Of a stretch of DNA of 64,000 nt, positions 4,425 through 61,729 are shown piece after piece. The stretch comes from Parcubacteria group bacterium. GTDB lineage: Bacteria; Patescibacteriota; Minisyncoccia; Phycocordibacterales; Zambryskibacteraceae. The notes beneath the pieces were generated by a model that saw only the letters and a list, made by a program, of their open reading frames with translations, ran no database searches and was not told the DNA's origin. How positions within the stretch are numbered: the first letter of the stretch is position 1; every line of letters begins with the position of its first letter. A program made the position numbers and the translations under genes. Where the stretch lies: contig JAQBRH010000004.1 of NCBI GenBank assembly GCA_028286565.1, positions 217,567 through 281,566 of the forward strand, read 5' to 3'.

Positions 4425-4430
4425 CGGGAC

Positions 4431-4649: not shown

Positions 4650-4655
4650 GTATCT

Positions 4656-4682
4656 CCAGTCCTACAAGGACTGGCTTTTTAT
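4656..4682 (+). terminator. Rho-independent terminator
   Basis: CCAGTCCTACAAGGACTGG followed by CTTTTTAT; it overlaps the ruvB stop codon. Confidence 0.65.
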
Positions 4683-5701
4683 AAAAGTTTTTCCTGTAGA
4701 TTTTTAGGAACCGGTAATCCGAGGTGCTCATAAGCCTTTTGGGTCAGGCAGCGGCCGCGGGGAGTGCGTTCGATGAACCCCATTTGGATCAAATACGGCT
4801 CGTTGAATTCTTCGATCGTTCCTTCTTCCTCCGAGAGCGCCGCAGCGATGGTGCCGAGCCCGACCGGACCGCCTCCGAATTTCTTGGCGATCGTTTCAAG
4901 AAGCGTGCGATCGGAAGGGGTGAGTCCGACCTCGTCGACTCCGAGGAGCTTCAGGGCTTCTTCGACCGTATCCTTATCGAGGTTCCGCTTGTGCACCTGG
5001 GCATAGTCGCGGGCGCGCTTCAAAAAGTAGTTGGCGGTGCGGGGGGTGAAGCGCGAGCGCTTGGATATTTCTTTCTCGGCCGAGCCGTCGGAGGTGACGC
5101 CAAGGATCTTTGCCGAGCGTTTGATGATCCTCTCGATCTCTCCGTGCGTATAGAACTCGAGTCTGAAAAGTCCGCCGGAAAAGCGAGAGCGAAGAGGGGA
5201 GGAGACCATCGAGAGGCGAGTGGTCGCCGCAAGGAGAGTGAACGGAGGCAGTTCGAGCTGGATCGTCCTCGCGCTCGGGCCTTTGCCGATGATGATGTCG
5301 AGGACGCCGGACTCCATGGCCGGGTAGAGGACTTCCTCGATCGACTTGTTCAATCGGTGGATCTCGTCGACGAAGAGGATGTCGCCCGGCGCGAGGTTTG
5401 TGAGGATCGAAGCGAGGTCGCCGACCTTCTCGATGGCCGGGCCGGAAGTGATCTTCATCGAGCGCCCCGTCTCCTTGGCGATCAGGTGGGCGAGAGTGGT
5501 CTTGCCAAGGCCGGGCGGGCCATAAAAGAGGATGTGCTCGGGCGGAGTACTGCGCTCCGAGGCGGCGCGAAGAAGGATGCGGAGGTTTTCTTTGATGGTC
5601 TCCTGGCCGACGTAGTCTTCCCAGCGCGAAGGACGGAGCTCTTCTCCGACAAGAAGGACTTCGTCTGGTTCTGTATGCGGATCTTTCTCCTTACTTGACA
5701 T
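4679..5701 (-). CDS. ruvB: Holliday junction branch-migration ATPase RuvB
   Basis: Walker A GPPGLGKTTLA, Walker B ILFVDEIHRL, sensor and winged-helix C-terminus. 340 aa. Confidence 0.92.
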   Translation of the reverse strand: MSSKEKDPHTEPDEVLLVGEELRPSRWEDYVGQETIKENLRILLRAASERSTPPEHILFYGPPGLGKTTLAHLIAKETGRSMKITSGPAIEKVGDLASILTNLAPGDILFVDEIHRLNKSIEEVLYPAMESGVLDIIIGKGPSARTIQLELPPFTLLAATTRLSMVSSPLRSRFSGGLFRLEFYTHGEIERIIKRSAKILGVTSDGSAEKEISKRSRFTPRTANYFLKRARDYAQVHKRNLDKDTVEEALKLLGVDEVGLTPSDRTLLETIAKKFGGGPVGLGTIAAALSEEEGTIEEFNEPYLIQMGFIERTPRGRCLTQKAYEHLGLPVPKNLQEKLL

Positions 5702-5967
5702 AAAAAGTAATGTATGCTAGGATACTGGCAGTGATAGGAACTACCCGGTCTCGGGTCATTTTTATCCAAAACGTTCTCCAAATCATAAATCTCTAAGCAA
5801 CAACCGCCTTCACAGGCACTTCGAGCGATTCTTTGAGGACGTTTTGGTTCGCGCTTGCGCGTGCTGACTCCATCCTAAAAAGTTTCGTTTAACTTTTAGC
5901 TTCCGGGTTAAAAGTGTTGCTTGGAGATTTATGCCTTGGAGGCACTTGTCTCCACCTCATTATCCAT

Positions 5968-5998
5968 GAAAAAAGAGCCCTCACAAGGGTTCTTTTTT
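5968..5998. terminator. Bidirectional rho-independent terminator (serves minus-strand pilB)
   Basis: AAAAAAGAGCCCTCACAAGGGTTCTTTTTT. Confidence 0.6.
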
Positions 5999-6038
5999 AT
6001 GCAACAGCAGTTTGTACAAGTTTCAAACTCGTGTCTTA

Positions 6039-7718
6039 TTACACGCTTGAAAGGTCGAGGACTCGGGCGAGTTCGGGGAGGGAGGTTTCGCCCTTGAGGA
6101 CCTTCAAAATGCCATCCTCTGCGAGGTTTAAGAGGTGTTGAGGCTTGGCTGCGGATTCGATATCCCGCTCGGAAGGGTTGTCTATGACCGCCTTTTCGAT
6201 GTTTGCATCAACAAGGACCGCTTCATACACCCCGATGCGTCCTTTGAATCCGAGATTGTGGCATGCCTCGCAGCCTACCGGCTCAAACGACTTTTCTCTT
6301 TGAATGCCTTCGAGATACGTCGGATCGGTGATGCCCGCGAGCGCCCGGTCGACGATCTCTTTCTGCTTGCCTTCGAGCAGGACCTCCTTTTTGCACGTGT
6401 CACAAAGTTTTCGCACCAAGCGCTGGGCGATAGCGACGTTGAGGGCGCTTGAGATGATCTTCGGATTCACTCCGAGGTCGATGAGTCGGGGGAAGGAACC
6501 CGCGGCGGTGTTCGTGTGGAGGGTCGAGAGCACGAGGTGTCCGGTCAGAGCGGCGTTCACCGCCACTTCGGCCGTTTCGTTGTCTCGAATTTCTCCGACC
6601 ATGATCACATCAGGATCTTGTCGGAGAGCGGAGCGGAGTCCTTCGGCGAAGGTGTAGTCTCCCTCGGAGTCGGTCTGGGTCTGGACAATGCCGTCGAGGT
6701 GGTACTCGATCGGGTTTTCGATGGTGATCACCTTGATGTCCGGCGTGTAAATTTTACGAAGGAAGGCGTAGAGGGTCGTTGTCTTTCCTGAACCCGTCGG
6801 ACCGGTGGTGAGGATCATGCCGTTCGGCTTAACCACTTCTTTCATCAGGACCTCAAGGAGGCGCGGGTGGATCCCCAGCTCTTCAAGAGGGACGGAGATC
6901 GCTTCCGGCGTGAGAACTCGAAGGACCACGGACTCATCGTTCGGTCCGGGGAGGAGGGAGGTTCGGACCTCGATCTCTTCGTCGCCGAGCTTGATCGAGA
7001 ATCGTCCGTCTTGAGCTTTACCCTTGGTGTTCAATTTCAAATTGGAGACAAGCTTGATGCGCGAGAGGAGGAGTTCGAAGGTTTCCTTGTCGAAGTGGAG
7101 GATATCGGTCAAGACGCCGTCCAGACGAAAACGCAGTCGGACATTGTCTTCCTCGGGTTCGAGATGGATATCCGAAGCCTTGAGGGCGACGCCTCCGGCG
7201 AGGATGATCTCGAGGATCTTTGAGATGCGATACGCCTTTTTCATGGAGAGCACTTCGGTGATGAGCTTTTCGATATCCGCGAGAGTGGTCACTTTTTTCA
7301 TGACATCGAGGATTTCTTGGTTCGAGATGTCGAGGGCGCCCGCATTCGTCTCGAACGAATAAGAGAGGTCCTTGTATCGGTCCCAGACCTTTTGGAGCGA
7401 AGCGTGGGAGACCATGTAGAGGGTGGGGACATATCCTCGGCCCTCGAGTTCGGCCATGGCGGCGGCGGTCTTGTCGCTCGACGGAGAGAGGGCGGCGACG
7501 TCCAACTTCTTGTCCGTGATATTGAAGACCGCGATCTCGTTCGATCGCGCATCTTCTTCTTTGATCACGCGGAGAGCGTCGATGTTTATCGGATGAGCGG
7601 AGAGGTCGAGGTAGGGGACGCCGTGCCTTGAGGACATCATCGAGGCGAGGCTTTCCTCTTCCTGGCGCTTGAGCATTTCTGTTCGCTCGTCGGATTTTGT
7701 TTCGTCGAATTCAACCAT
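6039..7718 (-). CDS. pilB: Type IV pilus assembly / type II secretion ATPase (PilB/GspE family)
   Basis: N-terminal GSPII_E_N-like region, Walker A GPTGSGKTTT, Asp box and His box, and a CxxC...CxxC tetracysteine motif (CDTCKK...CEAC). I set the start at MVEFDETK (7718) rather than the ORF-track 7820, whose first 34 aa look non-coding. Confidence 0.85.
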   Translation of the reverse strand: MVEFDETKSDERTEMLKRQEEESLASMMSSRHGVPYLDLSAHPINIDALRVIKEEDARSNEIAVFNITDKKLDVAALSPSSDKTAAAMAELEGRGYVPTLYMVSHASLQKVWDRYKDLSYSFETNAGALDISNQEILDVMKKVTTLADIEKLITEVLSMKKAYRISKILEIILAGGVALKASDIHLEPEEDNVRLRFRLDGVLTDILHFDKETFELLLSRIKLVSNLKLNTKGKAQDGRFSIKLGDEEIEVRTSLLPGPNDESVVLRVLTPEAISVPLEELGIHPRLLEVLMKEVVKPNGMILTTGPTGSGKTTTLYAFLRKIYTPDIKVITIENPIEYHLDGIVQTQTDSEGDYTFAEGLRSALRQDPDVIMVGEIRDNETAEVAVNAALTGHLVLSTLHTNTAAGSFPRLIDLGVNPKIISSALNVAIAQRLVRKLCDTCKKEVLLEGKQKEIVDRALAGITDPTYLEGIQREKSFEPVGCEACHNLGFKGRIGVYEAVLVDANIEKAVIDNPSERDIESAAKPQHLLNLAEDGILKVLKGETSLPELARVLDLSSV

Positions 7719-7774
7719 GGATATATTGTATCCTATTCGCGCCTCCAAGGCCCAGTAGAGGGCTATTTCAGCTA

Positions 7775-7803
7775 TTGACATTAGACAAGTTTGGGTGTAT
7801 AAT
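7775..7803 (+). promoter_or_regulatory. Perfect consensus sigma70-type promoter (TTGACA, 17-nt spacer, TATAAT)
   Basis: TTGACA at 7775-7780 and TATAAT at 7798-7803. AGGAGG follows at 7827-7832, then GTG at 7839. Confidence 0.6.
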
Positions 7804-7838
7804 ACTACCAGAACAATCAACCCACCAGGAGGTGGACC

Positions 7839-8348
7839 GTGCGGTACCTTCCCATGCTGTTCCTCGCGCTCGCGACTGCGTGCGCCTCGTCTCGGGTCAT
7901 CCCGATCGTCACTACCTTCAACTCATGCCCGAACACTCGCGTGGACGTGTATCACGCGAACGGGCAGCGGCTGGCAAGCCTCACGTACGGCGAGGGGCCG
8001 AAGGTCATCCAGCTCGACGACAACCCGCAGAACCAGCGGCTGAATGCCTTCGCCTTCGCGCTCAACGGGCACACACCTGTCGGTGCATGGTGGCAGACGT
8101 TCCGTGTGGACGTCTACCAGCCGAACTACTCCGGCTCATACGGCATCACCGCTCCCCAGCCGAGTTCGACCCCGAACGGCTACACGTGGACGTTCGGTTC
8201 GGAGAACGGGTCGTGCCGATCCGTCTCGGACGGAAGCAGCGGAGGCAACAGCGCCTGGGGTTCCGGAGGACCGGCGTGGAATGTCATCCCGCAGGCTCGC
8301 CCGGTTGTCCGTCCCGCTTGGGGGACTCCCGGTCCCGCTTGGGAGTAG
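7839..8348 (+). CDS. Small secreted hypothetical protein (signal peptide, GC-rich, C-terminal PAW repeats)
   Basis: GTG start with a perfect SD. Signal-like N-terminus MRYLPMLFLALATACASS. Triple G-PAW-x repeat at the C-terminus. Local GC is clearly higher than the flanks. Confidence 0.55.
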   Translation: MRYLPMLFLALATACASSRVIPIVTTFNSCPNTRVDVYHANGQRLASLTYGEGPKVIQLDDNPQNQRLNAFAFALNGHTPVGAWWQTFRVDVYQPNYSGSYGITAPQPSSTPNGYTWTFGSENGSCRSVSDGSSGGNSAWGSGGPAWNVIPQARPVVRPAWGTPGPAWE

Positions 8349-8366
8349 AGGCCCGTTCTCGGGCAA

Positions 8367-8397
8367 GGCAGAGCTTCGCGCTCTGCCTTTTTTCTTT
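8367..8397 (+). terminator. Rho-independent terminator
   Basis: GGCAGAGCTTCGCGCTCTGCC followed by TTTTTTCTTTG. Confidence 0.7.
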
Positions 8398-8440
8398 GTC
8401 TAATACGTCTACAAATTCGTAGTGATATAATGACACATAT

Positions 8441-8878
8441 ATGAAGTACGTATCCAAAAGCCTTGAAGACACAAAGAGTTTTGCCAAGACGTTCGTCGAA
8501 TCGCTTACAACGGAAGACGACGCGATCGTCGTCGCTCTCGAAGGCGACCTCGGCTCGGGGAAGACCACCTTTTCTCAGCTTGTCGGAGAGGCGCTCGGCG
8601 TCCGGGACGGGATCCAGAGCCCTACCTTTTTGATCGAGAAGATATACGAGTTGTTCGACAAGCCGTGGAAACACCTCGTTCATATCGACGCCTACCGGCT
8701 CGAGAAGCCCGAAGAGCTCCTTCACCTCGGCTGGCAGGAGATCATCTCGCGTCCGGACAATCTCGTTCTCGTCGAATGGGCGGACAAGGTACGTGATATC
8801 ATGCCGGATGACGCTCTGAGGATCTCCTTCACCTTTGTCGATGAGACCACCCGCGAGATAGATATTCATGAAAGTTAA
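8441..8878 (+). CDS. tsaE: tRNA threonylcarbamoyladenosine biosynthesis protein TsaE
   Basis: 145 aa with P-loop GDLGSGKTTF and typical YjeE length and layout. It is preceded by TGaTATAAT 10 nt upstream of the ATG. Confidence 0.8.
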   Translation: MKYVSKSLEDTKSFAKTFVESLTTEDDAIVVALEGDLGSGKTTFSQLVGEALGVRDGIQSPTFLIEKIYELFDKPWKHLVHIDAYRLEKPEELLHLGWQEIISRPDNLVLVEWADKVRDIMPDDALRISFTFVDETTREIDIHES

Positions 8879-11255
8879 ACCAGATATACAGCGCCTCGTC
8901 CTCCTCGACGCTCATGCGATCATCCACCGGGCCTTTCACGCGCTCCCGGACTTCGCCACTTCGCAGGGCGAGCCGACCGGAGCGCTGTTCGGCGTGGTGA
9001 CCATGCTTACGAAGATCATCGAAGAGCTCGCGCCCGACTCGATCGTCGCTTGCTACGACCTCCCGGAGAAGACGCATCGCCACGAAGCCTACGAAGAGTA
9101 CAAAGGGACAAGGCGGGCCCTCGATCCGAACCTCGTTCTCCAGCTCGAACGATCCAAGGATATATTTCGCGCCTGGAACATCCCGATCTATTCGTGCCCC
9201 GGATTTGAAGCGGACGACATCCTTGGGACGATCGTCGAAGATCTGAAAAAAGACAAAGCGATCGAGATCGTCATCGCCTCGGGGGACATGGATACGCTGC
9301 AGCTCGTCGACGGCAAGAAGGTCCGGGTGTACACCCTGAAAAAAGGCATCAAGGACACGATCCTCTACGACGAGAAAGCGGTCTTCGAGCGATTCGGGTT
9401 TGGTCCGCTCCTCCTTCCGGATTTTAAGGGACTCCGCGGAGATCCTTCGGACAACATCATCGGGGTGAAAGGCATCGGGGAAAAGACCGCCACCTCGCTC
9501 ATCACCGCCTTCGGGACGATCGAGAAAATATATAAAGCTCTAAAGAAAAAGGATGAATACAAGAAAGCCGGCATCACCGAGCGCATAAAAGATCTGTTGC
9601 TTGAGAACGAAGAAGAAGCCCTCTTCTCAAAGACCTTGGCCACTATTCGCCGCGATGCGCCGATCAATTTCACCATGCCCGCGCCGTGGAAAGAAACGCT
9701 CGTCATGGAAAACTTGCTCGAGCTCTTTAAGACGCTTGAGTTCAGGACGATGGGTGAGAGGATTAAAAACCTGCTTGCGAGCAAGAAAGATGATAAAGCT
9801 AAAATTCCTAAGGATAAAAAAAGTCCGAAGATAAAAAAAGAAACGCCCGCTCCTGTCGAACTGAGCAAGGGCGACAAAGAGCTTCTCCTCATGCTCTGGA
9901 TCGTTGATTCGAATTTCACCCTGCCGACGCTCGAGGATGTCTTCGCCTTCACGAAGACCGAAGACAAAAAGGAGGCGCGCGCGATCCTCGAAGCGGAGCT
10001 TGATAAGCGCAAAGTTCGATCCGTGTACGAGGAGATCGAGAAGCCTTTGATGCCTGTGACCGAGCGGATGAACGCGCGCGGGGTAGTGGTGGACAAGGAT
10101 GAGCTCAAGAAGCTTTCGGTGACGTATCACAAAGAACTCTCGCGCCTCGAAGGAGAGATCTGGAAGCACGCGGGCGAGGAGTTCAACATTAATTCTCCAA
10201 AGCAGCTCGGAGAAATATTGTTTACAAAGCTCGATCTCGGAGAGAAGAGGCAAAAGAAGACGGCGACCGGAGGATTTTCTACCAAGGAATCCGAGCTTGA
10301 TAAGCTCGCGGACAAGCATCCGATCATCGGCTGCATCCTCGACTACAGGGAACTTTCTAAACTCCTCGGCACATATATAGATACCATTCCGCTCCTTCTC
10401 GACGCCGAGTCCAGGCTCCACTCGACGTTCACCCAGGAGGGGACGACCACCGGACGCATGGCGTCGAACGATCCGAATTTGCAAAATATCCCCATTAAAA
10501 CTCCGCTTGGCCGGGCTATCAGGCATGCCTTCGTCGCACCGAATGGGTTTGTCCTCCTTTCCCTCGATTATTCGCAGATCGAGCTTCGCATCGCGGCCAT
10601 CCTTTCCAAAGACAAAAAACTGATCGACATATTCAAAAAAGGCGAAGACGTCCACACCGGAGTGGCCATGCGGGTGTTCGGCGTGAAGGCGGAGGAGGTG
10701 GACAAGGCCATGCGCACGAAAGCCAAGACCATCAACTTCGGCGTCCTTTTCGGGATGGGAGTGAACGCTCTGAAGACAAACTTGAAGACTGACAGAAAAG
10801 AAGCGCAGGAATTTTATAACAACTACTTTAATACCTTCAGCGAACTCGCGGCGTATCTCGGTCAGGTGAAGGCCGAGGCGGAGAGGAAGGGATATACGGA
10901 GACCCTCTACGGGCGCCGCAGGTATTTCGCCGGGCTCAAGTCTCCGCTTCCTTTTATCCGCGCCGCCGCCGAGCGCATGGCCATCAATGCTCCGATCCAG
11001 GGCACCGAGGCGGACATCGTGAAGATCGCCATGAAGCGGATCGACGATCGTATATATACAAAGGGCTGGGAGGATCAGGCCTTTCCTGTCTTAAATGTTC
11101 ACGACGAAATAGTCTATGAAGTGAAAAAAGAGATCGCCGAAGAAGCGCAGAGAGAATTTAAAAAGATCATGGAAGAAGTGATCCCCGAGGAAAAGACGCT
11201 CGGCGTGCCTATCGTCGCCGAAGGGAAGACCGCTTCTAATTGGGGAGATATATAG
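8868..11255 (+). CDS. polA: DNA polymerase I (5'-3' exonuclease + polymerase domains; no obvious 3'-5' exonuclease domain)
   Basis: N-terminal 5'-nuclease; PolA motifs DYSQIELRI (A), RTKAKTINFGVLFGMG (B), VHDEIVYEV (C). 795 aa. Confidence 0.92.
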   Translation: MKVKPDIQRLVLLDAHAIIHRAFHALPDFATSQGEPTGALFGVVTMLTKIIEELAPDSIVACYDLPEKTHRHEAYEEYKGTRRALDPNLVLQLERSKDIFRAWNIPIYSCPGFEADDILGTIVEDLKKDKAIEIVIASGDMDTLQLVDGKKVRVYTLKKGIKDTILYDEKAVFERFGFGPLLLPDFKGLRGDPSDNIIGVKGIGEKTATSLITAFGTIEKIYKALKKKDEYKKAGITERIKDLLLENEEEALFSKTLATIRRDAPINFTMPAPWKETLVMENLLELFKTLEFRTMGERIKNLLASKKDDKAKIPKDKKSPKIKKETPAPVELSKGDKELLLMLWIVDSNFTLPTLEDVFAFTKTEDKKEARAILEAELDKRKVRSVYEEIEKPLMPVTERMNARGVVVDKDELKKLSVTYHKELSRLEGEIWKHAGEEFNINSPKQLGEILFTKLDLGEKRQKKTATGGFSTKESELDKLADKHPIIGCILDYRELSKLLGTYIDTIPLLLDAESRLHSTFTQEGTTTGRMASNDPNLQNIPIKTPLGRAIRHAFVAPNGFVLLSLDYSQIELRIAAILSKDKKLIDIFKKGEDVHTGVAMRVFGVKAEEVDKAMRTKAKTINFGVLFGMGVNALKTNLKTDRKEAQEFYNNYFNTFSELAAYLGQVKAEAERKGYTETLYGRRRYFAGLKSPLPFIRAAAERMAINAPIQGTEADIVKIAMKRIDDRIYTKGWEDQAFPVLNVHDEIVYEVKKEIAEEAQREFKKIMEEVIPEEKTLGVPIVAEGKTASNWGDI

Positions 11256-29989: not shown

Positions 29990-30252
29990 GAAGGGAGTAA
30001 CAAGCGGTTAATCCCTTGGTGAGATACAAAAAGCCCACCACGGGTAGAGCCCGAAGGCTCTCGTACCAGTTTCCCGATACGGCAGGTCATGCGACCCCAT
30101 GATGGGTTCTTTGAGCACGACCTGACTTTGAACCATGCCTTTGGATTGCTCCAAAGGGTTAGGTTCCCAACTGTTCCCAGCTGTAAGTTAATTATGCCTA
30201 ATTTCATGGTTTTTGCTATAAGTGATCATTCCGCCCATATATGTCTTTAAAT

Positions 30253-51937: not shown

Positions 51938-52258
51938 ATGTTTTATGCGATCGTTACCCTGCCGTTCGAAGACAGACCCGGAACTCCCACGAAGGATATT
52001 CGGTTCGTGATGGGGGAGCCGTTGAAAGCTCTCAAGATCGTTCGGGCGATTCAGCGACTCGACACTCAGCGTGTGATCAGCCAGATCATGGTTTTCTCTC
52101 TGGATCCTGAAATGGCCTACAATCTCGCTCATTTGGGTGCATTCAGACTTGCTGCCGACGGCCCAACGATGGAACATGCTTCGTGGCACAGGGACGAGGG
52201 ATGGAACGAGGTTTTCTACGTAGGGCATTTCAAGGCAGTAGAGGGTGTTCCGGCCTAA
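51938..52258 (+). CDS. Hypothetical protein
   Basis: 106-aa ORF with good coding character and no domain recognised. Confidence 0.35.
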   Translation: MFYAIVTLPFEDRPGTPTKDIRFVMGEPLKALKIVRAIQRLDTQRVISQIMVFSLDPEMAYNLAHLGAFRLAADGPTMEHASWHRDEGWNEVFYVGHFKAVEGVPA

Positions 52259-52349
52259 CCGCCGGATTTTTCTTTGACTTCTTTTTGTCCAGGGGTAGAC
52301 TACGCCTAGACCCTTTGTGCTCGTTCCTTATACTAACCCTGAGGCCCGT

Positions 52350-53393
52350 ATGCAAGACGCTCGCAGCCACACCTCCGCCAAGGTCATCGCAGAGAGTGTG
52401 TACAGAGGAAGCAGACTCACCACATTCGAGATCGTGTTTCCGCGGATCATTCTCGCGGAATTCAACACGCATCGCTTGCTGAGTCGTAACTCGGCAAGCT
52501 CCCGAGCCTACCCCACATGGAAGGGTTTGGTGAAAGTGGTGGAATACCCGTTTGTTCCATCTCAGTTTGGAAAGAACAAGGCGGGCATGCAATCGACCGA
52601 GGATGTTTCGGAAGGAGATCTCAACGCAGCCAGGCAGAACTGGCTTGTCGGTCGAGATGTCGCGGTTATCCAGGCCTTCTATCTTGCAGGCGGATACGAC
52701 GAGATCATGAGGAACGCCAAAGGCGACCAGCAGGCTGAAGATGCGTGCAGACGCATCGATGAACTGGCCCGCGAGTATCCTGATGTTGTCCGCAAGATGA
52801 AAGCGTTGTCGGTCGGTGTGCACAAGCAGCATGCCAACCGCGTGCTTGAGCCATACGCTTGGCATACTGTGGTTGCCACAGGCGCCCATTGGCGAAATTT
52901 CTACGGACTGCGTGCCTCTAAGGAGGCACAGCCCGAGATCCGCGAAGCCGCTATCGCCATGATCGATGCTCATTTGCAGAGCGTTCCCCGCGAACTTGAT
53001 TGTGGAGAATGGCATCTGCCCTTTATCACTTCCGAAGATCGGGAAGAGGTCAAGGAATGGGAGCCATTGGCGCGCGTGTCGAGCGCCCGCTGCGGTCGCA
53101 CGAGCACTCTTACCCACGACGGCCATCGGAGTATCTCTGAAGACCTCACCATGGCTGACAGACTGCAGGGCCCGGGACATATGTCTCCGTTCGAACATCC
53201 CGCTCGTGCTCCTGAAAAAGGAATTCACTGGAAGTGGAGCAAAGGAGGTAACTTCGGTCGACCCTGGACGCAGTATCGGAAGATGCTGCAGGGGGAACAT
53301 GATTTTTCGAGGCTGGCATCCCCTGAGGATCTTTTGTTGGGAGTAGGAGGAGATCAGAAGAGGCTGGATTTTATCCTTTCTCTCAATGAATGA
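52350..53393 (+). CDS. ThyX-like (flavin-dependent thymidylate synthase family) protein, divergent, with a ~110-aa C-terminal extension
   Basis: ThyX signature region reads NTHRLLSRNSASSRAYP, where the family has RHRxxSxxxxSxRY; the later block ANRVLEP...HWRNFYGLRASKEAQPEIREAA resembles the ThyX ARxVLP...RSLxHFxxLRxxxxAQxEIR block. An alternative GTG start lies at 52317. Confidence 0.6.
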   Translation: MQDARSHTSAKVIAESVYRGSRLTTFEIVFPRIILAEFNTHRLLSRNSASSRAYPTWKGLVKVVEYPFVPSQFGKNKAGMQSTEDVSEGDLNAARQNWLVGRDVAVIQAFYLAGGYDEIMRNAKGDQQAEDACRRIDELAREYPDVVRKMKALSVGVHKQHANRVLEPYAWHTVVATGAHWRNFYGLRASKEAQPEIREAAIAMIDAHLQSVPRELDCGEWHLPFITSEDREEVKEWEPLARVSSARCGRTSTLTHDGHRSISEDLTMADRLQGPGHMSPFEHPARAPEKGIHWKWSKGGNFGRPWTQYRKMLQGEHDFSRLASPEDLLLGVGGDQKRLDFILSLNE

Positions 53394-53519
53394 TCTATAG
53401 CGAGGACCCATGTCCTCGTTTTTTATATAAAATAACTCGTATTTAAAACCGTTAAGTCAACTTGTTTAGTTTTTATATGAGCTTAAGCTAGGCAAAGATA
53501 CTCAATCGAGAGGTTCTTT

Positions 53520-54143
53520 ATGAATGAATTCGGCAAGTTCATTGTGGTGTGTGGGACGGAAGGATCAGGCAAGACCACGGCAGTCAAACGGCTCATGAGT
53601 AGTGACCTTAAAGACTCTTTCGTGGATTCAAGAGAACCGGGAGGTTCTAAGGGTGGTGAAGATATTCGCAAATTCATTTTCGCGAATCCCGATCTTCATA
53701 CCGAAGCCCGTTTCCATCTTTTCTGGGCTGCACGCAAGGATCATTGGAACACTTTGATCTTGCCTGCATTGAAGAGCGGAAAGCATGTGATTTGCGATCG
53801 ATTCGATTGCTGCACCTATGCCTTTCAGTGCTACGGAGAGGAGCATGTCCACCTGCAGAACATCTTCAGGACAATTAGGGAAGATATGTTTCCTAGCTGG
53901 AAAGTAGAGTGGAGGCCGCAGTATATCCACTTCGACTTACCTCCGCTCGTCGGCCTCGGACGAAAGATCGCCGACGGAGATCGCAACTTCTTCGACGACG
54001 AACAGCTCGCTTTTCATGAGAGAGTACGGCGTGGGTACGAAGAATTTGGCAAATTGTTCCCAGTGAAGCGTCTCAATGCTGACCAGGATCCTGAGATGGT
54101 CTGGCGTGATTTCCGCACAAATGTTGAAAAGATCTTGGTGTGA
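53520..54143 (+). CDS. tmk: Thymidylate kinase
   Basis: P-loop VVCGTEGSGKTT, the REPGG motif, and DRFDCCTYAFQ (DRY-like). Confidence 0.85.
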   Translation: MNEFGKFIVVCGTEGSGKTTAVKRLMSSDLKDSFVDSREPGGSKGGEDIRKFIFANPDLHTEARFHLFWAARKDHWNTLILPALKSGKHVICDRFDCCTYAFQCYGEEHVHLQNIFRTIREDMFPSWKVEWRPQYIHFDLPPLVGLGRKIADGDRNFFDDEQLAFHERVRRGYEEFGKLFPVKRLNADQDPEMVWRDFRTNVEKILV

Positions 54144-54185
54144 GCCAAGGTCTTTTTTCTTTGTCAGTTTTAAGTATGATGAAGA

Positions 54186-55809
54186 GGTGAAAAACACTCT
54201 CTATACCTTGGTCGAAGAAGCCCTCGTCTCGCTCGGGGTCGAAGATCAGAAATTCACCATCGAACATCCGACGAACCTCGCCTTCGGGGACTATTCGACG
54301 AATGCGGGGATCATCTCCGGTAAACCTGAAGAATTGGCCGCCGCCCTTCGACGAGCTCAGGGCGATTTGCTTGGGCAAATCGAGAAGATCGAGGTGAAGA
54401 ACGGCTTCATCAACTTCTATCTCTCAAAAGAATTTTTTAAGAAATCGATCGGAGAGATCGCAGAGAAGGGGGGTGATTTCGGCAAGAATGAGAGTTTGAA
54501 AGGGGAGAGAGTGCTCGTCGAACACACCGACCCGAATCCGTTCAAGCCGTTCCATATCGGGCACCTTATGCCAAACGTCGTCGGTTCAACGCTCGCCCGC
54601 ATTTACGAATGGAACGGCGCCGAGGTAAAGGAAGCCTGCTACCAGGGAGATGTAGGCATCCATGTGGCCAAGGCCATCTGGGGGATCCTTCATGGAGAAA
54701 AAGAAGACGCCTACCCGGCCGGCAACAAGGCCTTTGAGGAGAACGAGGAGGCAAAGGAAGAAATTAAAGCGATCAACAAAAAGATTTATGATCGATCTGA
54801 TGAGAAGATCAATCAGCTCTATGACCAGGGGAGAAAGGTAAGCCTCGATTATTTTGATTCTATATATACAAAGCTGGGTACAAAGTTCGATTATTTCTTT
54901 TTCGAATCAGAAACTGCTGGTGTAGGAAAGAAAATAGTAGAAGATCATCCAGAGATATTTGAAAAGTCCGAAGGGGCGGTGATCTTTCATGCAGAGAACC
55001 ACGACAAGTCACTCCACACCCGAGTGTTCATAAACTCAGAAGGGCTGCCTACGTATGAGACCAAGGAGCTTGGCCTGGCCAAAGTGAAGGCAGAAAAATA
55101 TCCATATACAAAGTCGATCGTGGTGACAGGGAATGAGATCAATGAGTATTTCAAGGTGCTTCTTCAGGCGATGAAGCTTATCTTCCCGGACCTTCGCGAG
55201 AAGACTGTGCACATCTCACACGGGATGCTCCGCCGGCCTACAGGCAAGATGAGTTCACGAACCGGAGATGTGATCACTTTCGAAGAACTCCTTGAACAGG
55301 TGAAAGAGAAAATTGCTGAGAAGGGGGACATTGCCCAGGAAGAAGTGGCGATCGGTGCGATCAAATACATGATCCTCCGGTCAAACATCGGAAGCGACAT
55401 CATCTTTGATATTGATAAGTCCGTCTCGACCGAAGGCGACTCCGGCGTCTATCTCCAATATTCATACGCTCGAACCAATTCGCTGTTGGAGAAAGCGCGC
55501 ATCCAAGGCAAGGCCTTACACGCCGATTCCCAAAGCCCCGCCTTGGATACGCGAGAGACTCATTCGCTCGAAAAGCTTTTGTATAGATTCCCGGAGATCG
55601 TAGAGAGGGCCCGAGAGGAGAATGCTCCCAATCTGCTTGTAACATATCTTACCGAGATCGCCGGTTCTTTCTCAAACCTCTACGCTTCCGAGCAGATCAT
55701 TTCCGATTCTCCCGGATCTTCATATCTCCTTGCGGTCACTGAAGCCTTTAATACGGTCATGAAGAACGGCCTCACTATCCTTGGCATCCCAACCCCCGAG
55801 AAGATGTAA
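54186..55809 (+). CDS. argS: Arginyl-tRNA synthetase
   Basis: HIGH motif (PFHIGHLMPNVVG), a class I core, and a C-terminal DALR anticodon-binding domain. I chose the GTG start at 54186 to avoid a 68-nt overlap with tmk; the ORF-track start is 54076. Confidence 0.85.
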
Positions 55810-55832: not shown

Positions 55833-58800
55833 ATGCCCACAATGCCTGAAGATAAAGGGCTATCTCGTTCCCAAAGGGAGGAGAAGGTCCTCCAATTTTG
55901 GAAAGACAATTCAATATTCGAAAAGAGCCTTGAGAAGCCCTCTCCCAAGGGCGAATTCGTGTTTTATGAAGGCCCCCCGACGGCGAACGGCCGACCCGCC
56001 CTTCACCATCTCGAAGCTCGCTCGTTCAAGGATGCGATCCCACGGTTTAAGACCATGCAGGGATTCCATGTCCGCCGAAAGGCGGGGTGGGACACGCACG
56101 GTCTTCCCGTAGAGATCGAAGCGGAGAAAACCCTCGGCCTTAAATCCAAAAAAGAGATCGAAGCCTACGGGGTGGCAAAATTTAATGCCGAATGCAAACG
56201 AAGCGTCGGGAAATACATCGACGAATGGGCCCGCTTCACCGACCGCATCGGATACTGGACCGACCTCGACGACGCGTACTTTACGTACCACAATTCATAC
56301 ATCGAATCGGTGTGGTCCGTCCTCGCCCATGTGGAGAAGCGAAAACTTTTGTATAAGGACTACAAGGTGGTACCGTGGTGCCCTCGCTGCGGGACGGCCC
56401 TTTCCTCGCACGAACTTGCTCAAGGGTATAAGGACGTCAAAGACCTTTCGCTCTATGTGAAGTTCAAGCTCGTCGATTTCCCAAATGCCTACTTCCTCGC
56501 CTGGACGACCACTCCGTGGACTCTACCCGGGAACGTCGCGCTCGCGGTCGGGCCAGGGATCACCTATGTCGAAGCAAAAGTGGGAGAGACTATCTATGTT
56601 CTAGCCAAAGAGCGGCTCTCCACCCTCACCGAAGAGTATGAAGTCATCGCCGAACACAAAGGCAAAGACATGGTCGGGATGAAGTACGAACCTTTGTATC
56701 CGTTCGTCGAGAACAACGGCAAGGCCTTTCAGATCTATCCGGCGGATTTTGTCACGACCGAAGACGGGACGGGCATCGTCCATACTGCGGTCATGTACGG
56801 GCAGGAAGACTTCGAGCTTGGCACCAAGGTTGGTTTGCCCAAGGTGCATTTGGTAAACCCCGATGCGACATTCAAAGACGGCCTCGACTGGCTCTCCGGC
56901 CGATCGGTCATCGATGAGACGCTTGCGGTCGATATTTTGAAGGACCTCCAAGCCCGCGGACTTTTCTACCACAAAGAGAATCATCTTCATTCGTATCCGT
57001 TCTGCTGGAGGTGCAAGACCAGGCTCATCTACTATGCAAGAGATTCGTGGTACATCAGGATGTCGGAGGTCAGAGATGATCTGGTAAAGGGGAACCAAGA
57101 GATCCACTGGGAGCCGGAGTATATACAAGAAGGCCGATTCGGCGATTGGCTCAGGGAAGTAAAGGACTGGGCGATCTCTCGCGAGCGATACTGGGGGACT
57201 CCTTTGCCGATCTGGCAGACCGCGGACGGAGAGCGCTTGGTCGTTGATTCGATCGACACGCTGAAAAAACACACTAAGAGATCCGGCAACTCATATTTTG
57301 TGATGCGGCACGGCGGAACCGAAGGCAACAGGCAAGAGATCGTCAGCTACAACAACCAAGCGAACGATCATCTGACCGAAGAAGGGAAGATCGGAGTGGA
57401 GACCGCCGCAGAGAAATTGAAAGGCGAAAAGTTCGACCTCATCATCGCCTCGCCGTTTGCGCGGGCGCAGGAGACGGCGAAGATCGTACAGGAGACGATC
57501 GGATTTGATGCAGACATCATTACGGACGAACGCATCCAGGAAATAAATCCGGGCGACTATGACGGCAAGAGCTGGTTCGATTATCATGAAGCGGTCTCGA
57601 GCGAGAAGGACTGGTTCAAAGGCAAACCTCACGGAGGAGAATCATACGAAGAAGTGCAAAAGCGGGTAGGAGAATTCCTCTACGACCTTGAGACGACCTA
57701 CAAAGATAAAAAGATCCTGGTGGTGACGCACGGCGGACCGGCTTGGCTTTTGCATGCGGTATCCGGCGCATATCTCCCGACAAACAAAGAATACAAAGTG
57801 CCCGAGCACACGGTCCCCACCAAGATCTTCGTGCCCGAGTTCACCCGCTTTATGAACGCCGAAGTCCGCGAACTTCTGTTCGTTCCGCTTCCGCACGATG
57901 AGAATTATACGGTCGACCTCCACAAGCCGTTCATCGACGACGTGGTGCTCGAAAAGGACGGCAAGGAATATACACGAGTGAAAGAAGTGATGGATGTGTG
58001 GTTCGACTCCGGCGCCGTGCCCTTTGCCCAAGACGCGAATGATCGAGAAAAGCCGGGAGATTTTAAAAACATTCTATACCCCGCGGATTTTATTTCCGAA
58101 GCCATCGATCAAACCCGCGGATGGTTCTACACCCTGCATGCGATAGGCATCCTCATGGAGAAAGGCCCCGCCTACAAGAACGTTATCTGCCTCGGCCACA
58201 TCATGGACAAGGAAGGCAAGAAGATGAGCAAATCCATAGGCAACGTCGTGGACCCGTGGGAGCAGATAGAAAAGTACGGAGTGGATACGCTGCGCCTCTG
58301 GATGTATTCGGTGAACCAGCCGGGAGAGTCCAAGAACTTTGATGAGCGCTCGGTTGATGAGATCCAGAAGCGGGTCTTTAACCTCGTCGACAACGTCTTT
58401 GCTTTTTATGAGCTCTATCGGGATGCGGGTGTTGAAACTCCTTCATCCGTGCCACAGAGCAATAATATCCTGGACGCGTGGATCCTCACCAAGCTCGGGG
58501 GACTCGTCCTCTATTCGACGACGAAGCTCGAAGGGTATCAGCTCCTGGAGCCGACCCGCGCAATAAGGGCCTTCATCGACGATCTGTCGACGTGGTACGT
58601 GCGCCGATCGCGAGACCGCCTCAAGGCGGGGGAGACGGAAGCAAAGGCGACGCTCTATTTTGTCTTGAAGACCATTTCTAAGCTCCTGGCCCCGTTCGCT
58701 CCGTTCTATGCGGACGATCTCTATCAAAAACTCCGCACGCCAGGAGATCCTTTGAGCGTGCACCTCGACTCGTGGCCCGCACTCGATGCTTCGAACGAAG

Positions 58801-59204
58801 AGCTTCTCAAAAATATGGATACGACGCGCAAACTCGTCTCCTCGGCGCTTGAATTGCGCTCGAGCGCGAATATCAAAGTTCGCCAACCGCTTCAGAAACT
58901 CACCATCAAGAACGATGAGCTCGGCCAAGAGTTCCTCGACATCATCCGCGACGAGCTGAATGTGAAGGAAGTAACAGTGAATAAAGACCTGGCTACCGAG
59001 ATCGAACTCGACCCGACCATTACTCCGGAACTCATGCTCGAAGGCCGCATGCGAGACATCGTCCGCTCTATCCAAGAGATGAGGAAGGGTAATGACTTGA
59101 ATCCCGGAGATATCATGGAATATTCCGTCGCCGAAGAGGACAGAGAGATATTCGAGCGATTCAAAGACCAGATCGTTGCTTTGACGAATATAGAGATCAA
59201 GTAA
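55833..59204 (+). CDS. ileS: Isoleucyl-tRNA synthetase carrying an in-frame histidine-phosphatase (PGAM-like) domain insertion
   Basis: IleRS motifs: PPTANGRPALHH (HIGH-like), the CP1 editing region, WAISRERYWGTPLPIW, DVWFDSG and KMSKS. A ~190-aa insert between WGTPLPIW and DVWFDSG carries the His-phosphatase motifs RHGGTEGN, LTEEG, SPFARAQETA and VVTHGG. Confidence 0.9.
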   Translation: MPTMPEDKGLSRSQREEKVLQFWKDNSIFEKSLEKPSPKGEFVFYEGPPTANGRPALHHLEARSFKDAIPRFKTMQGFHVRRKAGWDTHGLPVEIEAEKTLGLKSKKEIEAYGVAKFNAECKRSVGKYIDEWARFTDRIGYWTDLDDAYFTYHNSYIESVWSVLAHVEKRKLLYKDYKVVPWCPRCGTALSSHELAQGYKDVKDLSLYVKFKLVDFPNAYFLAWTTTPWTLPGNVALAVGPGITYVEAKVGETIYVLAKERLSTLTEEYEVIAEHKGKDMVGMKYEPLYPFVENNGKAFQIYPADFVTTEDGTGIVHTAVMYGQEDFELGTKVGLPKVHLVNPDATFKDGLDWLSGRSVIDETLAVDILKDLQARGLFYHKENHLHSYPFCWRCKTRLIYYARDSWYIRMSEVRDDLVKGNQEIHWEPEYIQEGRFGDWLREVKDWAISRERYWGTPLPIWQTADGERLVVDSIDTLKKHTKRSGNSYFVMRHGGTEGNRQEIVSYNNQANDHLTEEGKIGVETAAEKLKGEKFDLIIASPFARAQETAKIVQETIGFDADIITDERIQEINPGDYDGKSWFDYHEAVSSEKDWFKGKPHGGESYEEVQKRVGEFLYDLETTYKDKKILVVTHGGPAWLLHAVSGAYLPTNKEYKVPEHTVPTKIFVPEFTRFMNAEVRELLFVPLPHDENYTVDLHKPFIDDVVLEKDGKEYTRVKEVMDVWFDSGAVPFAQDANDREKPGDFKNILYPADFISEAIDQTRGWFYTLHAIGILMEKGPAYKNVICLGHIMDKEGKKMSKSIGNVVDPWEQIEKYGVDTLRLWMYSVNQPGESKNFDERSVDEIQKRVFNLVDNVFAFYELYRDAGVETPSSVPQSNNILDAWILTKLGGLVLYSTTKLEGYQLLEPTRAIRAFIDDLSTWYVRRSRDRLKAGETEAKATLYFVLKTISKLLAPFAPFYADDLYQKLRTPGDPLSVHLDSWPALDASNEELLKNMDTTRKLVSSALELRSSANIKVRQPLQKLTIKNDELGQEFLDIIRDELNVKEVTVNKDLATEIELDPTITPELMLEGRMRDIVRSIQEMRKGNDLNPGDIMEYSVAEEDREIFERFKDQIVALTNIEIK

Positions 59205-59794
59205 TGTCTTATAATATTTACACGACTCGAGGGCTCGTTTTGTCCGCGAGGCCTCTTCGCGAAGCCGATCGCTTGTATTCGATCCTCACCCGCGACCTCG
59301 GGCTTATCTATGCGCGGGCGCTCGGGGTGAGGAAGGAAGCCTCAAAACTTCGAAGCAGCCTTGAGCCATATTCTCTCGTGCATGTATCCGTGGTAAAGGG
59401 GCAGGTCCAGTGGAGAGCGACAAGCGCGTCTCTGGTTGCGCCGCCGAGCGTGCTTGATCACAAGAAAAAAGTATTCAAATCTCTTGTTCGAGGCCTCTCG
59501 CTCCTCGAGCGGCTCGTGCAAGGAGAAGAGAAGCACCCCGAGCTGTACGACTCGGTTGAAGAAATTTGCCGCTTTGCCGCGAGCGAGGAAGTGGGAGCGG
59601 AAGATGGGGAAGCGCTCGAGACGATCCTCGTCGCCCGCCTGCTGTTCCACCTCGGATATCTGTCCGAAAAGGATGTGCCGGAACATATTGTGAAAGGCGA
59701 GCTTACCCGGGAACTCGTAGCAGAAACTTCGAGGAATAAGAAAAAGATAATAGAAGTTATTAACCACGGCCTAGAGAATACGGATCTTACATAA
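59204..59794 (+). CDS. recO: DNA repair protein RecO
   Basis: N-terminal OB fold (RGLVLSARPLREADRLYSILTRDLG) and overall RecO-like length and helical C-terminus. Confidence 0.75.
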   Translation: MSYNIYTTRGLVLSARPLREADRLYSILTRDLGLIYARALGVRKEASKLRSSLEPYSLVHVSVVKGQVQWRATSASLVAPPSVLDHKKKVFKSLVRGLSLLERLVQGEEKHPELYDSVEEICRFAASEEVGAEDGEALETILVARLLFHLGYLSEKDVPEHIVKGELTRELVAETSRNKKKIIEVINHGLENTDLT

Positions 59795-59809: not shown

Positions 59810-61729
59810 ATGGAAGACGAGAGGAGCAATATAAATAAATTGAACGAGTCGCTGTATTCGCGCACCCGCTATCAGGCCCCGGATGACCGCCGTACTCCGC
59901 TTGTTGCAAGCGAGGCGCCGGACGTAAGCGAATCCTTCGACTCCAAATCGATCGACGACATGATAAAAGAAGACCGCCGCAGGAACGAGAACCATCCGAT
60001 CATGGCAAAGATGTTCACCTTTGCTCTTATTTTCTGCTTGGCCGCCGCCGCGGTCGCGGGCTATATCTATCTCGCCGGAGGGAACCTCATTTCTTCGAAG
60101 AATGTGGAGATCTCGGTCCTCGGACCCGTGTCCGTGGCTGCCGGAGCTCCGCTCGAGCTTGGGGTGACCATTTCGAACAAGAATAACGCCGATCTCGCCA
60201 CCGTGAACATGGTGGTCGAATATCCGGAAGGCACCCGCTCCGCCGAAGACTCGACGAAGACCCTGGCTCGAGACAAAGTGGCGGTCGGAGCTATCGCCGC
60301 GGGTGCTTCGGCTACCCGCACCGAGCGGGCCATCCTCTTCGGCCAAAAAGGGGACATTAAAACCGTCATCATTAACCTTGAATACAGGGTCCAAGGATCG
60401 AACGCTATTTTCTCCAAACAAAAGTCGTATGACATTTCCATCGGCTCCGCGCCGGTCACCATGACGGTGGATGAGCCTCCGACGGTTACTTCCGGTAATA
60501 CATTTCAAACCAAGATCACCATTCTCGCTAACTCAAGCGAGATTTTGAAAGATGTGCTGATCCGCGGCGAATATCCGTACGGGTATTCCGTCTCAAGCGC
60601 CGTGCCGAATCCCTCTGCCGGAGACAATATCTGGTCGCTCGGCGACCTCCAGCCCGGAGAGAAGCGAGAGATCGTCATTAAAGGAATTCTTCTCGGTGAG
60701 AATCAAGAGGAGCGAACTTTTAGGTTTTATGCGGGAGTAGGGAAGACCGGAGATCCGAACAAATTCGAAAGCACTCTTTCTCTTTCTACCCAAACGGTCC
60801 AGATCAGCCGCTCATCGCTCAGCCTGGCCGTCAGCTTGAACGGAGAAAATACGTCCTCGTACATCGCTCCGGCGGGCAATGTTATCCAAGGGGCGGTTTC
60901 GTATAAAAATAATCTCCCGACGAACGCCTCGAATGGCCGTATCCAGGTGACGCTTTCGGGGGCGGCGCTTGATAAGTTTTCTATTCAAGCGGACAAGGGC
61001 GGATTTTATAATTCGAGCAACAATACAATAGAATGGAATCCTTCGAACTACCCCGAGCTTGCCACCTTGTCTCCCGGCGAATCGGGGCAGGTTAGCTTCG
61101 CCTTCTCATCCCTCGCCGTCCTTCCTCCCGGAGCGAAGAACAACGAGATGTCCCTGAACACGAGACTCACAGCCGATCCATCAAGCGGGGATACTCAAAG
61201 CATCCTCACGGCTTCCGCCACGAACTCGGTCAAGGTCGCTTCAGAAGTGACGCTGTCGGCCAAGGCTCTTTACTCGCGCGGACCGTTCAAGAACACGGGC
61301 CCTATCCCCCCAAAAGCCGAGAAGCCGACGACCTACACGCTTGTGCTCGACCTCGGGAACACTCAAAACGATGTAACCGGCGCCGTGGTCACGGGCAAGC
61401 TCGGACCGAACGTCACCTGGACGGATAAAACGAGCGTCACCGGAGGACAGATCTCGTACGATCCCGCGGCGAATGTTTTAACATGGGTCGTGGATAAACT
61501 TCCCTCGGGTGCCGGGTTCTCAGGCAAGGCGCTCGAAGCGGTGTTCCAGGTATCCTTGAATCCGTCGATCGGCCAGGTCGGCTCTTCACCGATCCTTGTT
61601 TCCGGACTCTCCTTCAGCGGGACAGACTCGTTCACGAACTCCAAGGTGAGCTTTGCTCTGCCTGCGGTCACTACCCGCATCACTTCCGACCCCGCCTATG
61701 TCCAAGGGGACGACCTGGTTGTTAAATAG
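59810..61729 (+). CDS. Large membrane-anchored surface protein with repeated beta-rich (Ig-like) domains, hypothetical
   Basis: Cytoplasmic N-terminus, a TM helix (FTFALIFCLAAAAVAGYIYLAG), then ~540 aa of Ser/Thr/Gly/Asn-rich extracellular repeats. 639 aa. Confidence 0.55.
   Translation: MEDERSNINKLNESLYSRTRYQAPDDRRTPLVASEAPDVSESFDSKSIDDMIKEDRRRNENHPIMAKMFTFALIFCLAAAAVAGYIYLAGGNLISSKNVEISVLGPVSVAAGAPLELGVTISNKNNADLATVNMVVEYPEGTRSAEDSTKTLARDKVAVGAIAAGASATRTERAILFGQKGDIKTVIINLEYRVQGSNAIFSKQKSYDISIGSAPVTMTVDEPPTVTSGNTFQTKITILANSSEILKDVLIRGEYPYGYSVSSAVPNPSAGDNIWSLGDLQPGEKREIVIKGILLGENQEERTFRFYAGVGKTGDPNKFESTLSLSTQTVQISRSSLSLAVSLNGENTSSYIAPAGNVIQGAVSYKNNLPTNASNGRIQVTLSGAALDKFSIQADKGGFYNSSNNTIEWNPSNYPELATLSPGESGQVSFAFSSLAVLPPGAKNNEMSLNTRLTADPSSGDTQSILTASATNSVKVASEVTLSAKALYSRGPFKNTGPIPPKAEKPTTYTLVLDLGNTQNDVTGAVVTGKLGPNVTWTDKTSVTGGQISYDPAANVLTWVVDKLPSGAGFSGKALEAVFQVSLNPSIGQVGSSPILVSGLSFSGTDSFTNSKVSFALPAVTTRITSDPAYVQGDDLVVK

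Follow-up and report, generated by a model that had tools for sequence, protein, structure and literature searches.

An ileS gene with a nested phosphatase domain

A window of 64,000 nucleotides (nt) from a Parcubacteria group bacterium (assembly GCA_028286565.1, contig JAQBRH010000004.1, positions 217,567 to 281,566 of the forward strand) was analyzed, with attention to ileS, a gene for isoleucyl-tRNA synthetase (IleRS) that contains a histidine phosphatase (HP) domain within its reading frame. The features of this gene and its surroundings, numbered from the first nucleotide of the window, are collected in Table 1. A preliminary description of the sequence had claimed a continuous open reading frame (ORF) of 1,123 aa and a full set of phosphatase motifs between the WxISRxRYWGxPxP and DVWFDSG motifs of the synthetase. 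The frame was found to have no internal stop, and every quoted motif was present at the place given: MRHGG (aa 491 to 495), SPFARAQETA (aa 540 to 549), DERIQEIN (aa 565 to 572) and VTHGG (aa 631 to 635), flanked by WAISRERYWGTPLPIW (aa 446 to 461) and DVWFDSG (aa 721 to 727). Pfam divided the protein into tRNA-synt_1 (PF00133) in two parts, the first spanning aa 19 to 481 and the second resuming beyond His_Phos_1 (PF00300), followed by Anticodon_1 and then DUF5915. The hidden Markov model (HMM) comparison proposed earlier for the insert yielded a match to PF00300 over aa 489 to 642 (E = 7.1e-36; 124.1 bits against a gathering threshold of 21.7), and His_Phos_1 plus short linkers accounted for the whole insert.

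The insertion point was located by alignment to IleRS2 of Priestia megaterium (8C8W). Residues 11 to 482 of the query corresponded to chain residues 9 to 479 and residues 691 to 1052 to chain residues 483 to 852, so that an insert of about 208 aa (window positions ∼57282 to 57902) stands for three loop residues of the reference. These limits fall within 6 nt of the interval of 57288 to 57900 proposed in the preliminary description. Removal of the insert leaves an IleRS of ∼915 aa, close to the ∼930 to 990 aa of insert-free Parcubacteria enzymes and in agreement with the expectation of a normal-length synthetase. The site had also been said to hold a Zn knuckle in other IleRS, and the flank alignment bore this out, as the corresponding loop of 8C8W lies inside a CxxC...CxxC knuckle (VWECEGCQH ... 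LTCPVCSGE, versus IWQTADGER ... LEKDGKE in the window protein).

Table 1. Positions of ileS, its functional elements and the adjoining genes in the 64,000-nt window
Feature	Position	Strand	Remarks
argS (arginyl-tRNA synthetase)	54076..55809	+	Ends 23 nt before ileS; in sister lineages a free HP gene lies in the gap
ileS, type-2 (eukaryote-like) isoleucyl-tRNA synthetase with nested phosphatase	55833..59204	+	1,123 aa
Class I signature ALHH (G/AXHH type, instead of HXGH)	55998..56009	+	aa 56-59
CP1 editing domain, first Zn site on both sides	56379..57014	+	PDB editing-domain matches 1WK8/1UE0
N-terminal half of former second Zn knuckle (CP3-type insertion, as we presume)	57207..57278	+	IWQTADGER vs 8C8W VWECEGCQH
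His_Phos_1 branch 1 domain in knuckle loop	57282..57902	+	aa 484-690
RHG motif, R492 and predicted nucleophile H493	57306..57314	+	Both 121/121; align to PhoE R10/H11
R544, predicted second phosphate-binding Arg (SPFARAQETA)	57462..57464	+	121/121; aligns to Arg in PhoE TSGRALETA
E570, predicted general acid (DERIQEIN)	57540..57542	+	121/121; aligns to Glu in PhoE DERLREIHLG
H633-G634, predicted second catalytic His (VTHGG)	57729..57734	+	H 121/121, G 109/121
C-terminal linker FVPLPHD, then C-terminal half of former knuckle (DLHKPFIDDVVLEKDGKEYTR)	57879..57992	+	Linker conserved
KMSKS loop	58221..58235	+	aa 797-801; K797, M798, S799, K800 invariant, S801 ≥90% (119 homologues)
recO	59204..59794	+	Overlaps ileS stop codon; part of argS-(HP)-ileS-recO block

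Conservation of the phosphatase active site

An alignment of 121 full-length proteins was used to examine the insert. In addition to the residues listed in Table 1, R611 was present in 121 of 121 sequences and N499 in 120 of 121. In a computed alignment, the catalytic residues of the insert matched the core of the phosphatase PhoE (1H2E), whose residues we take to be numbered R10, H11, N17, R59, E83 and H151. Mean identity to the query was 50% for the insert (minimum, 31%) and 69% for the synthetase body; the invariance of six catalytic residues within an insert of only ∼50% identity argues for a working phosphatase. The HP domain is thus apparently active, with its full catalytic core kept.

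The same conservation bears on the idea that the insert is purely structural, a zinc-free scaffold or spacer that replaced the Zn knuckle after loss of catalysis. The second knuckle has lost all of its four cysteines across the clade of the window protein (window positions 57207 to 57278 and 57903 to 57992), so the insert could compensate structurally for a lost metal site; in the AlphaFold2 (AF2) model the N-terminal knuckle half still forms strands at residues 460 to 462 and 468 to 470. A mere spacer is nevertheless highly improbable, given that the six core catalytic residues do not vary among 121 sequences that average only 50% identity over the insert, that HP is also found at sites without a knuckle, and that other embedded lineages (e.g., L085 and L073) have both the phosphatase and the knuckle cysteines. 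Retention of the cysteines in those embedded forms further indicates that the insert did not arise as a replacement of the Zn site and that cysteine loss was secondary, following insertion in the clade of the window protein. Among class Ia synthetases, this knuckle element presumably corresponds to the CP3 insertion, located in the second half of the Rossmann fold. All embedded forms had an identical insertion point and a C-terminal linker of the pattern [FL]x[LIF]P[YH][ND]..ELDxHRP[YF][IV]D; both features argue for common descent of the state with HP at this site.

Integrity of the synthetase

The synthetase half looks intact. The NCBIfam model for ileS (TIGR00392) was matched at 850.9 bits, above its curated equivalog cut-off of 621.4, and the C-terminal region was recognized as that of a type-2 enzyme through DUF5915 (PF19302; 40.7 bits against a threshold of 27). 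The best PDB matches were P. megaterium IleRS2 (8C8U/8C8W; E = 6e-234) and Thermus thermophilus IleRS (1ILE; E = 3e-214), both collinear with the whole synthetase, and not IleRS1, the type with a C-terminal Zn-binding domain. The window protein resembles type-2 IleRS in its CP1 editing domain, KMSKS motif and DUF5915 region but differs from them in having a second Zn knuckle without cysteines. Within the CP1 domain (CP-core, CP1, CP2 and CP3 are named as in PMC11685878), the editing motifs TTTPWTLPGN (aa 225 to 234) and GTGIVHTAVMYGQED (aa 312 to 326, with GTGIVH and D326) were intact, and the first Zn site consisted of CPRC (aa 183 to 186) and CWRC (aa 391 to 394). Nearly all residues of the editing motifs, the first Zn site and KMSKS were invariant among 119 homologues, the others being conserved in at least 90%.

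The class I signature, either HXGH or G/AXHH in combination with KMSKS, is recognizable from the sequence as ALHH plus KMSKS; the clade consensus at the former motif was GIHH. ALHH, the natural motif of Deinococcus radiodurans IleRS2, belongs to the G/AXHH type, a variant known from IleRS2 enzymes with hyper-resistance (PMC10485003). The variant is catalytically competent in IleRS2 and confers hyper-resistance to mupirocin (Brkic et al. 2023, PMC10485003). Intrinsic mupirocin hyper-resistance of these bacteria would be predicted from this motif.

Authenticity of the fusion

The composition of the insert (GC, 0.536; GC3, 0.676) was the same as that of the rest of the gene (GC, 0.533; GC3, 0.679), a point that bears on the age of the insert, and the reading frame was continuous on both sides. 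An identical protein was present in NCBI on a 308-kb contig labeled 'Parcubacteria group bacterium' (P0068), and an orthologue of 85% identity had the same domain architecture. The preliminary description had asked whether orthologues share the insert: PF00300 lay inside IleRS in all of the 120 best full-length relatives (58 to 100% identity, 1,035 to 1,334 aa), which came from NCBI, JGI, ENA and Logan and were named Zambryskibacteria, Nomurabacteria, Minisyncoccia or Paceibacterota. Partial sequences spanning the junctions, from independent sources, agreed with the nested architecture, and a single ORF in the order IleRS-N, HP, IleRS-C was found in 13 GTDB species representatives.

These data leave scarcely any probability that the fusion is an artefact in which misassembly or a frameshift merged a separate phosphatase gene with ileS. 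Such a separate HP gene does adjoin ileS in related genomes, and certain copies from metagenome-assembled genomes are frameshifted or fragmented (P0002 and L003). Set against this, four data sources supplied over 120 independent clusters in which the same junction is found, the 13 single-ORF species point the same way, and argS abuts ileS in the window without an intervening HP gene. As far as can be judged from sequence data, both a chimera and a frameshift are excluded. In L003 (positions 188 to 2939), the ileS-HP gene was split into several ORFs that were partly duplicated and inverted. Noise from assembly or frameshifts is the likely cause, and the case shows that not all database fragments of the ileS-HP family can be relied on.

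Fold and family of the insert

An AF2 model of the full protein, built from a 119-sequence alignment, had a mean pLDDT of 89.7 and a pTM of 0.83, with pLDDT values of 82 to 97 over the HP region and 92 to 97 in its core. When the HP domain alone was compared by Foldseek, matches with TM scores of 0.62 to 0.68 and a probability of 1.00 were obtained to PspA, the Aquifex HFP, CobC, GpgP and PhoE, and the sequence search with the insert matched the same PDB phosphatases. The insert was thereby placed in the superfamily on three counts: the PF00300 threshold, the catalytic core shared with PhoE and an alpha/beta phosphoglycerate mutase (PGM)-like fold. Fold, size and catalytic constellation are those of the small-molecule branch-1 phosphatases, namely, PhoE (1H2E), the CobC alpha-ribazole phosphatase (6E4B/6NRU), the PspA phosphoserine phosphatase (4IJ5), the Aquifex riboflavin-pathway HFP/ARAPDP phosphatase (9MMH) and GpgP (4PZ9). 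The insert differs from these enzymes in being nested in another enzyme, in its low identity to them (25 to 29%) and in an extra loop of 25 to 30 residues before the last strand (aa ∼646 to 673).

Assignment to a particular function was tried with NCBIfam models. Scores fell below the curated cut-offs for CobC (TIGR03162; 97.5 versus 162.9), dPGM (TIGR01258; 21 versus 81.7), archaeal dPGM (NF038349; 83 versus 225), PspA (61 versus 350), the SixA phosphohistidine phosphatase (TIGR00249; 40.9 versus 74.5), GpmB and acid phosphatase; the CobC relative P0050 lies in a cob operon, whereas no cob genes adjoin the window gene. As the insert is under all function-specific cut-offs, it was filed at the superfamily level only. 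The second-best NCBIfam model was NF005567 (90.7 bits versus a cut-off of 326), which describes the Rv2228c-type RNase H/CobC-like acid phosphatase. In that protein a CobC-like phosphatase is likewise joined covalently to a nucleic-acid enzyme, but the fusion is end to end and with another partner, whereas that of the window protein is nested. That IleRS can carry an additional catalytic domain, inside it or attached to it, has a curated precedent in NF040702, an isoleucine-tRNA ligase containing an N-acetyltransferase (GNAT) domain; the window protein scored 298 against a cut-off of 1999 and had no acetyltransferase Pfam match. A mobile insert was rejected, no intein (Hint) or homing-endonuclease Pfam match being detected in the 1,123-aa protein at E values of ≤0.01.

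Phosphatase domains at other sites and in valyl-tRNA synthetase

When representatives of clusters at 50% identity were searched exhaustively by HMMER with the insert as query, 13,012 relatives were detected, of which 29 had E values below 1e-30. Among the top matches were IleRS of another lineage, with a canonical HYGH motif, that contained two, three or four HP copies. The multi-copy proteins, one of which is not an IleRS (see below), were P0202, P0223, P0254, P0287, P0292, P0293, P0310, P0321, P0329 and P0333. The domain occupied at least three sites in IleRS: site A, between WxISRxR and DxWFxSG; site B, between DxWFxSG and DQxRGWF; and site C, ∼75 residues after KMSKS. Catalytic residues were kept in every complete copy of the multi-copy proteins as well as in the free-standing relatives. 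One of the four-copy proteins, P0202, is a valyl-tRNA synthetase (ValRS), and a directed search added 11 ValRS clusters with HP (P0343 to P0351, P0353 and P0354) from Gracilibacteria, Doudnabacteria and Parcubacteria, where the HP, when its position was checked, lay at the site homologous to A.

Two further proteins had additional domains. P0186, an IleRS of the lineage of the window protein, carried an extra HD domain at its C terminus, and P0231, likewise an IleRS, combined His_Phos and GNAT domains with an in-frame segment resembling a REP-associated tyrosine transposase in the CP1 region. P0231 and P0186 may be true mosaics, or their genes may be disrupted.

Repeated association of the HP with IleRS and ValRS, both class Ia enzymes, at positions surrounding the catalytic domain is what might be expected if the HP served repair or counter-defense. 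It would then act on the 3′-CCA end of the tRNA, from which it would strip a phosphate (a pyrophosphate or cyclic phosphate if assisted by HD-type partners), or would dephosphorylate the synthetase following attack by a toxin kinase, chargeability being restored at the enzyme in either case. The GNAT and HD domains that also occur in IleRS of the candidate phyla radiation (CPR) act elsewhere on aminoacyl-tRNA or nucleotide ends, and the cap region (E570 to G602) appears from the alignment to be short relative to that of PhoE, which would leave a more open active site. Against such a role, the top sequence and fold matches were small-molecule enzymes rather than protein phosphatases of the SixA, Sts or PGAM5 type; the insert, the free-standing HP and the whole protein gave 0 matches to the defense models of PADLOC-DB; and nothing accounts for a need confined to IleRS and ValRS. 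We therefore regard this role as quite unlikely.

Gene neighborhood and the free-standing phosphatase

The gene order in the window was tmk, argS, ileS (with HP), recO, a gene for a 639-aa protein and a gene for a class II synthetase. A phmmer comparison with all six-frame segments of ≥50 aa detected no second HP gene in the 64-kb window. The nearest free-standing relatives of the insert, P0018 and P0019 (∼190 to 200 aa), represent a separate, uncharacterized polypeptide found in "Candidatus Staskawiczbacteria," Nealsonbacteria and other Parcubacteria. They are 33 to 35% identical to the insert and share with it a conserved Asn six residues before RHG, the catalytic residues and the genomic block; their final strand reads AEVRELN, versus AEVRELLF in the insert, and the neighboring IleRS is insert free with an intact Zn knuckle. 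At L001, for example, an HP gene of 189 aa starts 3 nt after argS and ends 6 nt before an insert-free ileS encoding an intact knuckle, which is followed by one gene of unknown function and then recO. The argS-HP-ileS-recO block was conserved in Staskawiczbacteria, Nealsonbacteria and other Parcubacteria (L001, positions 4346 to 9383; L010 to L089).

The subfamily was surveyed with a four-sequence query in one genome per GTDB species, many GTDB titles (e.g., 'uncultured Candidatus Saccharibacteria' and TPA assemblies) being submitter labels. A total of 298 relatives were obtained, and the best 80 loci were classified. In 65 of the 80, a separate HP gene lay upstream of ileS, at a distance of less than 400 nt in 49 and separated from it by 0.5 to 2.1 kb of variable genes in 16; these intervening genes were heterogeneous and gave no clue to function. 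In 13 loci the HP was nested in ileS, and in these argS mostly abutted ileS directly, as in the window; the remaining 2 were uninformative, being too short or having no ileS. The Parcubacteria HP subfamily is thus almost always linked to ileS, as either a neighboring gene or a nested domain. A bootstrapped neighbor-joining tree of the HP (158 columns) had weak deep nodes and only local mixed clades with 71 to 91% support.

More distant free-standing relatives adjoined genes for NUDIX, HD, dCMP deaminase or nucleoside deoxyribosyltransferase proteins or were CobC in a cob operon. Those at L007, L091 and L094 (34 to 35% identity) repeatedly adjoined NUDIX hydrolase genes, and the L094 cluster, with the order HP-HD-NUDIX-hydrolase-GNAT-NUDIX, included domain types (HP, HD and GNAT) that turn up in CPR IleRS.

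The proximity of HP to ileS would allow a simple origin for the fusion by local rearrangement. A housekeeping phosphatase, active in nucleotide or sugar-phosphate salvage or 'housecleaning,' would have landed in a tolerant surface loop of an essential neighbor and become fixed through drift, given the small populations of CPR bacteria. The two activities would be independent, and the phosphatase would have no mechanistic link to aminoacylation. The direct upstream position of HP in 65 of 80 related genomes is as this account would have it, as are the site itself, a loop known to vary (a Zn knuckle or the GNAT variant NF040702), the small-molecule phosphatases that are the nearest characterized relatives, and the location of more distant ones in NUDIX or nucleotide neighborhoods unrelated to translation. 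Less easily explained by neutral fusion are the at least three IleRS sites, the two to four copies all having catalytic residues, and the occurrence in ValRS; at L090 (positions 6001 to 7797), the sole ValRS locus with context, no HP gene lay upstream of valS, the locus ending inside valS with the downstream side out of view. The conserved linker and insertion point, a confident AF2 model of the protein as one body, and a tight argS-HP-ileS packing over deep divergence, which suggests selected coexpression, also speak against it. On this evidence neutral fusion is a real possibility, to which we would give somewhat less than an even chance.

Several other features of the window were recorded. 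A LOOT RNA (Rfam RF03000) was present at 30046 to 30165 on the minus strand (85.5 bits; gathering score, 46.4). Eight tRNA genes lay between 12587 and 28136 (Lys-TTT, Arg-GCG, Ser-TGA, Arg-TCT, Leu-CAG, Val-TAC, Leu-GAG and His-GTG), with tRNA-Ile not among them. The 639-aa ORF downstream of recO (59810 to 61729, plus strand) encoded an N-terminal hydrophobic segment and matched no Pfam family, and no family was matched by a 392-aa ORF at 52230 to 53411 (minus strand).

Proposed function

The reading that we favor, with a probability of about 0.8, is that ileS of the window encodes a protein that is truly bifunctional, in which a functional type-2 IleRS has a complete branch-1 HP nested in the loop of its second knuckle. 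The IleRS would charge tRNA-Ile as usual, and the HP beside it would constitute a second catalytic center that is fixed rather than floppy. The phosphatase is predicted to act as a phosphomonoesterase through a phospho-His493 intermediate, in which the phosphate would be held by R492, R544 and H633 and E570 would serve as the acid. The small-molecule enzymes among its nearest relatives and the nucleotide genes that neighbor its distant ones favor a substrate of the nucleotide- or sugar-phosphate type, most probably a small monoester of this kind. As physical coupling to IleRS and ValRS has occurred repeatedly, the substrate may be one that is produced or bound at the synthetase; candidates there would be AMP or another nucleotide monoester and, less likely, a phosphorylated tRNA 3′ end. 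A bearing on Ap4A metabolism had been raised in the preliminary description, but cleavage of this compound by a phosphomonoesterase fold is unlikely. A part in editing or a moonlighting function, raised there as well, would be speculative.

A number of points weigh against the bifunctional reading or parts of it. The case for activity is built on conservation of catalytic residues, which is indirect evidence, and the insert is under every functional NCBIfam cut-off, so homology gives no substrate. The proposed fixed orientation of the HP is derived from the pTM and linker conservation only. With its weak deep support, the neighbor-joining tree does not decide between insertion and fission. Because HP adjoins ileS in sister lineages, a near-neutral local rearrangement is possible and fusion need not mean coupling. 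Finally, the view was limited to 64 kb, and a second, insert-free ileS may be present elsewhere in the genome.

Coupling of the two activities is favored by the multi-site and multi-copy insertions, the ValRS cases and the conserved junction, while neutrality is favored by the adjacency of HP and ileS and the known tolerance of the loop. In a further reading, which we consider doubtful, the HP would work in partnership with class Ia synthetases, as a tethered catalytic module whose target is something at the synthetase. This target might be a phosphorylated, pyrophosphorylated or cyclic-phosphate tRNA 3′ end, a phosphorylated synthetase or a nucleotide product. If the partnership were real, tRNA or enzyme repair or nucleotide processing would be built into the IleRS and ValRS of Parcubacteria, and sister lineages, in which the HP is free-standing, would have in it a cofactor that acts on IleRS in trans and has so far escaped notice.

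Implications

The preliminary description had regarded the architecture as undescribed. This holds for the searchable literature, where neither full-text searching nor recent papers on IleRS structure and evolution yielded any reference to a phosphatase domain within IleRS or another aminoacyl-tRNA synthetase of CPR bacteria. In the public sequence databases, however, the architecture is abundant under the plain labels 'isoleucyl-tRNA synthetase' and 'class I tRNA ligase family protein,' and automatic Pfam tables already list the domain pair. What is new is the recognition and interpretation of public sequences, not the data, and current genome annotation hides the nested architecture under plain 'IleRS.'

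The protein of the window, with bifunctionality understood at the strength given above, is a real, conserved and undescribed architecture in which a synthetase carries an additional catalytic domain that is unusual in type, in position and in breadth. Few enzymes have been studied as thoroughly as aminoacyl-tRNA synthetases, in which accessory domains usually point to further functions, such as editing, signaling or complex formation. Throughout a large clade of ultra-small CPR bacteria, an essential synthetase houses within its Rossmann fold a second and apparently active catalytic center; the domain has also undergone tandem amplification to as many as four copies and has been gained in parallel by ValRS. 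The free, nested and multi-copy forms provide a natural series for studying domain insertion into essential enzymes, and the association ties a phosphatase of unknown role to translation in a way that is concrete and open to testing, in bacteria with a largely unknown physiology.

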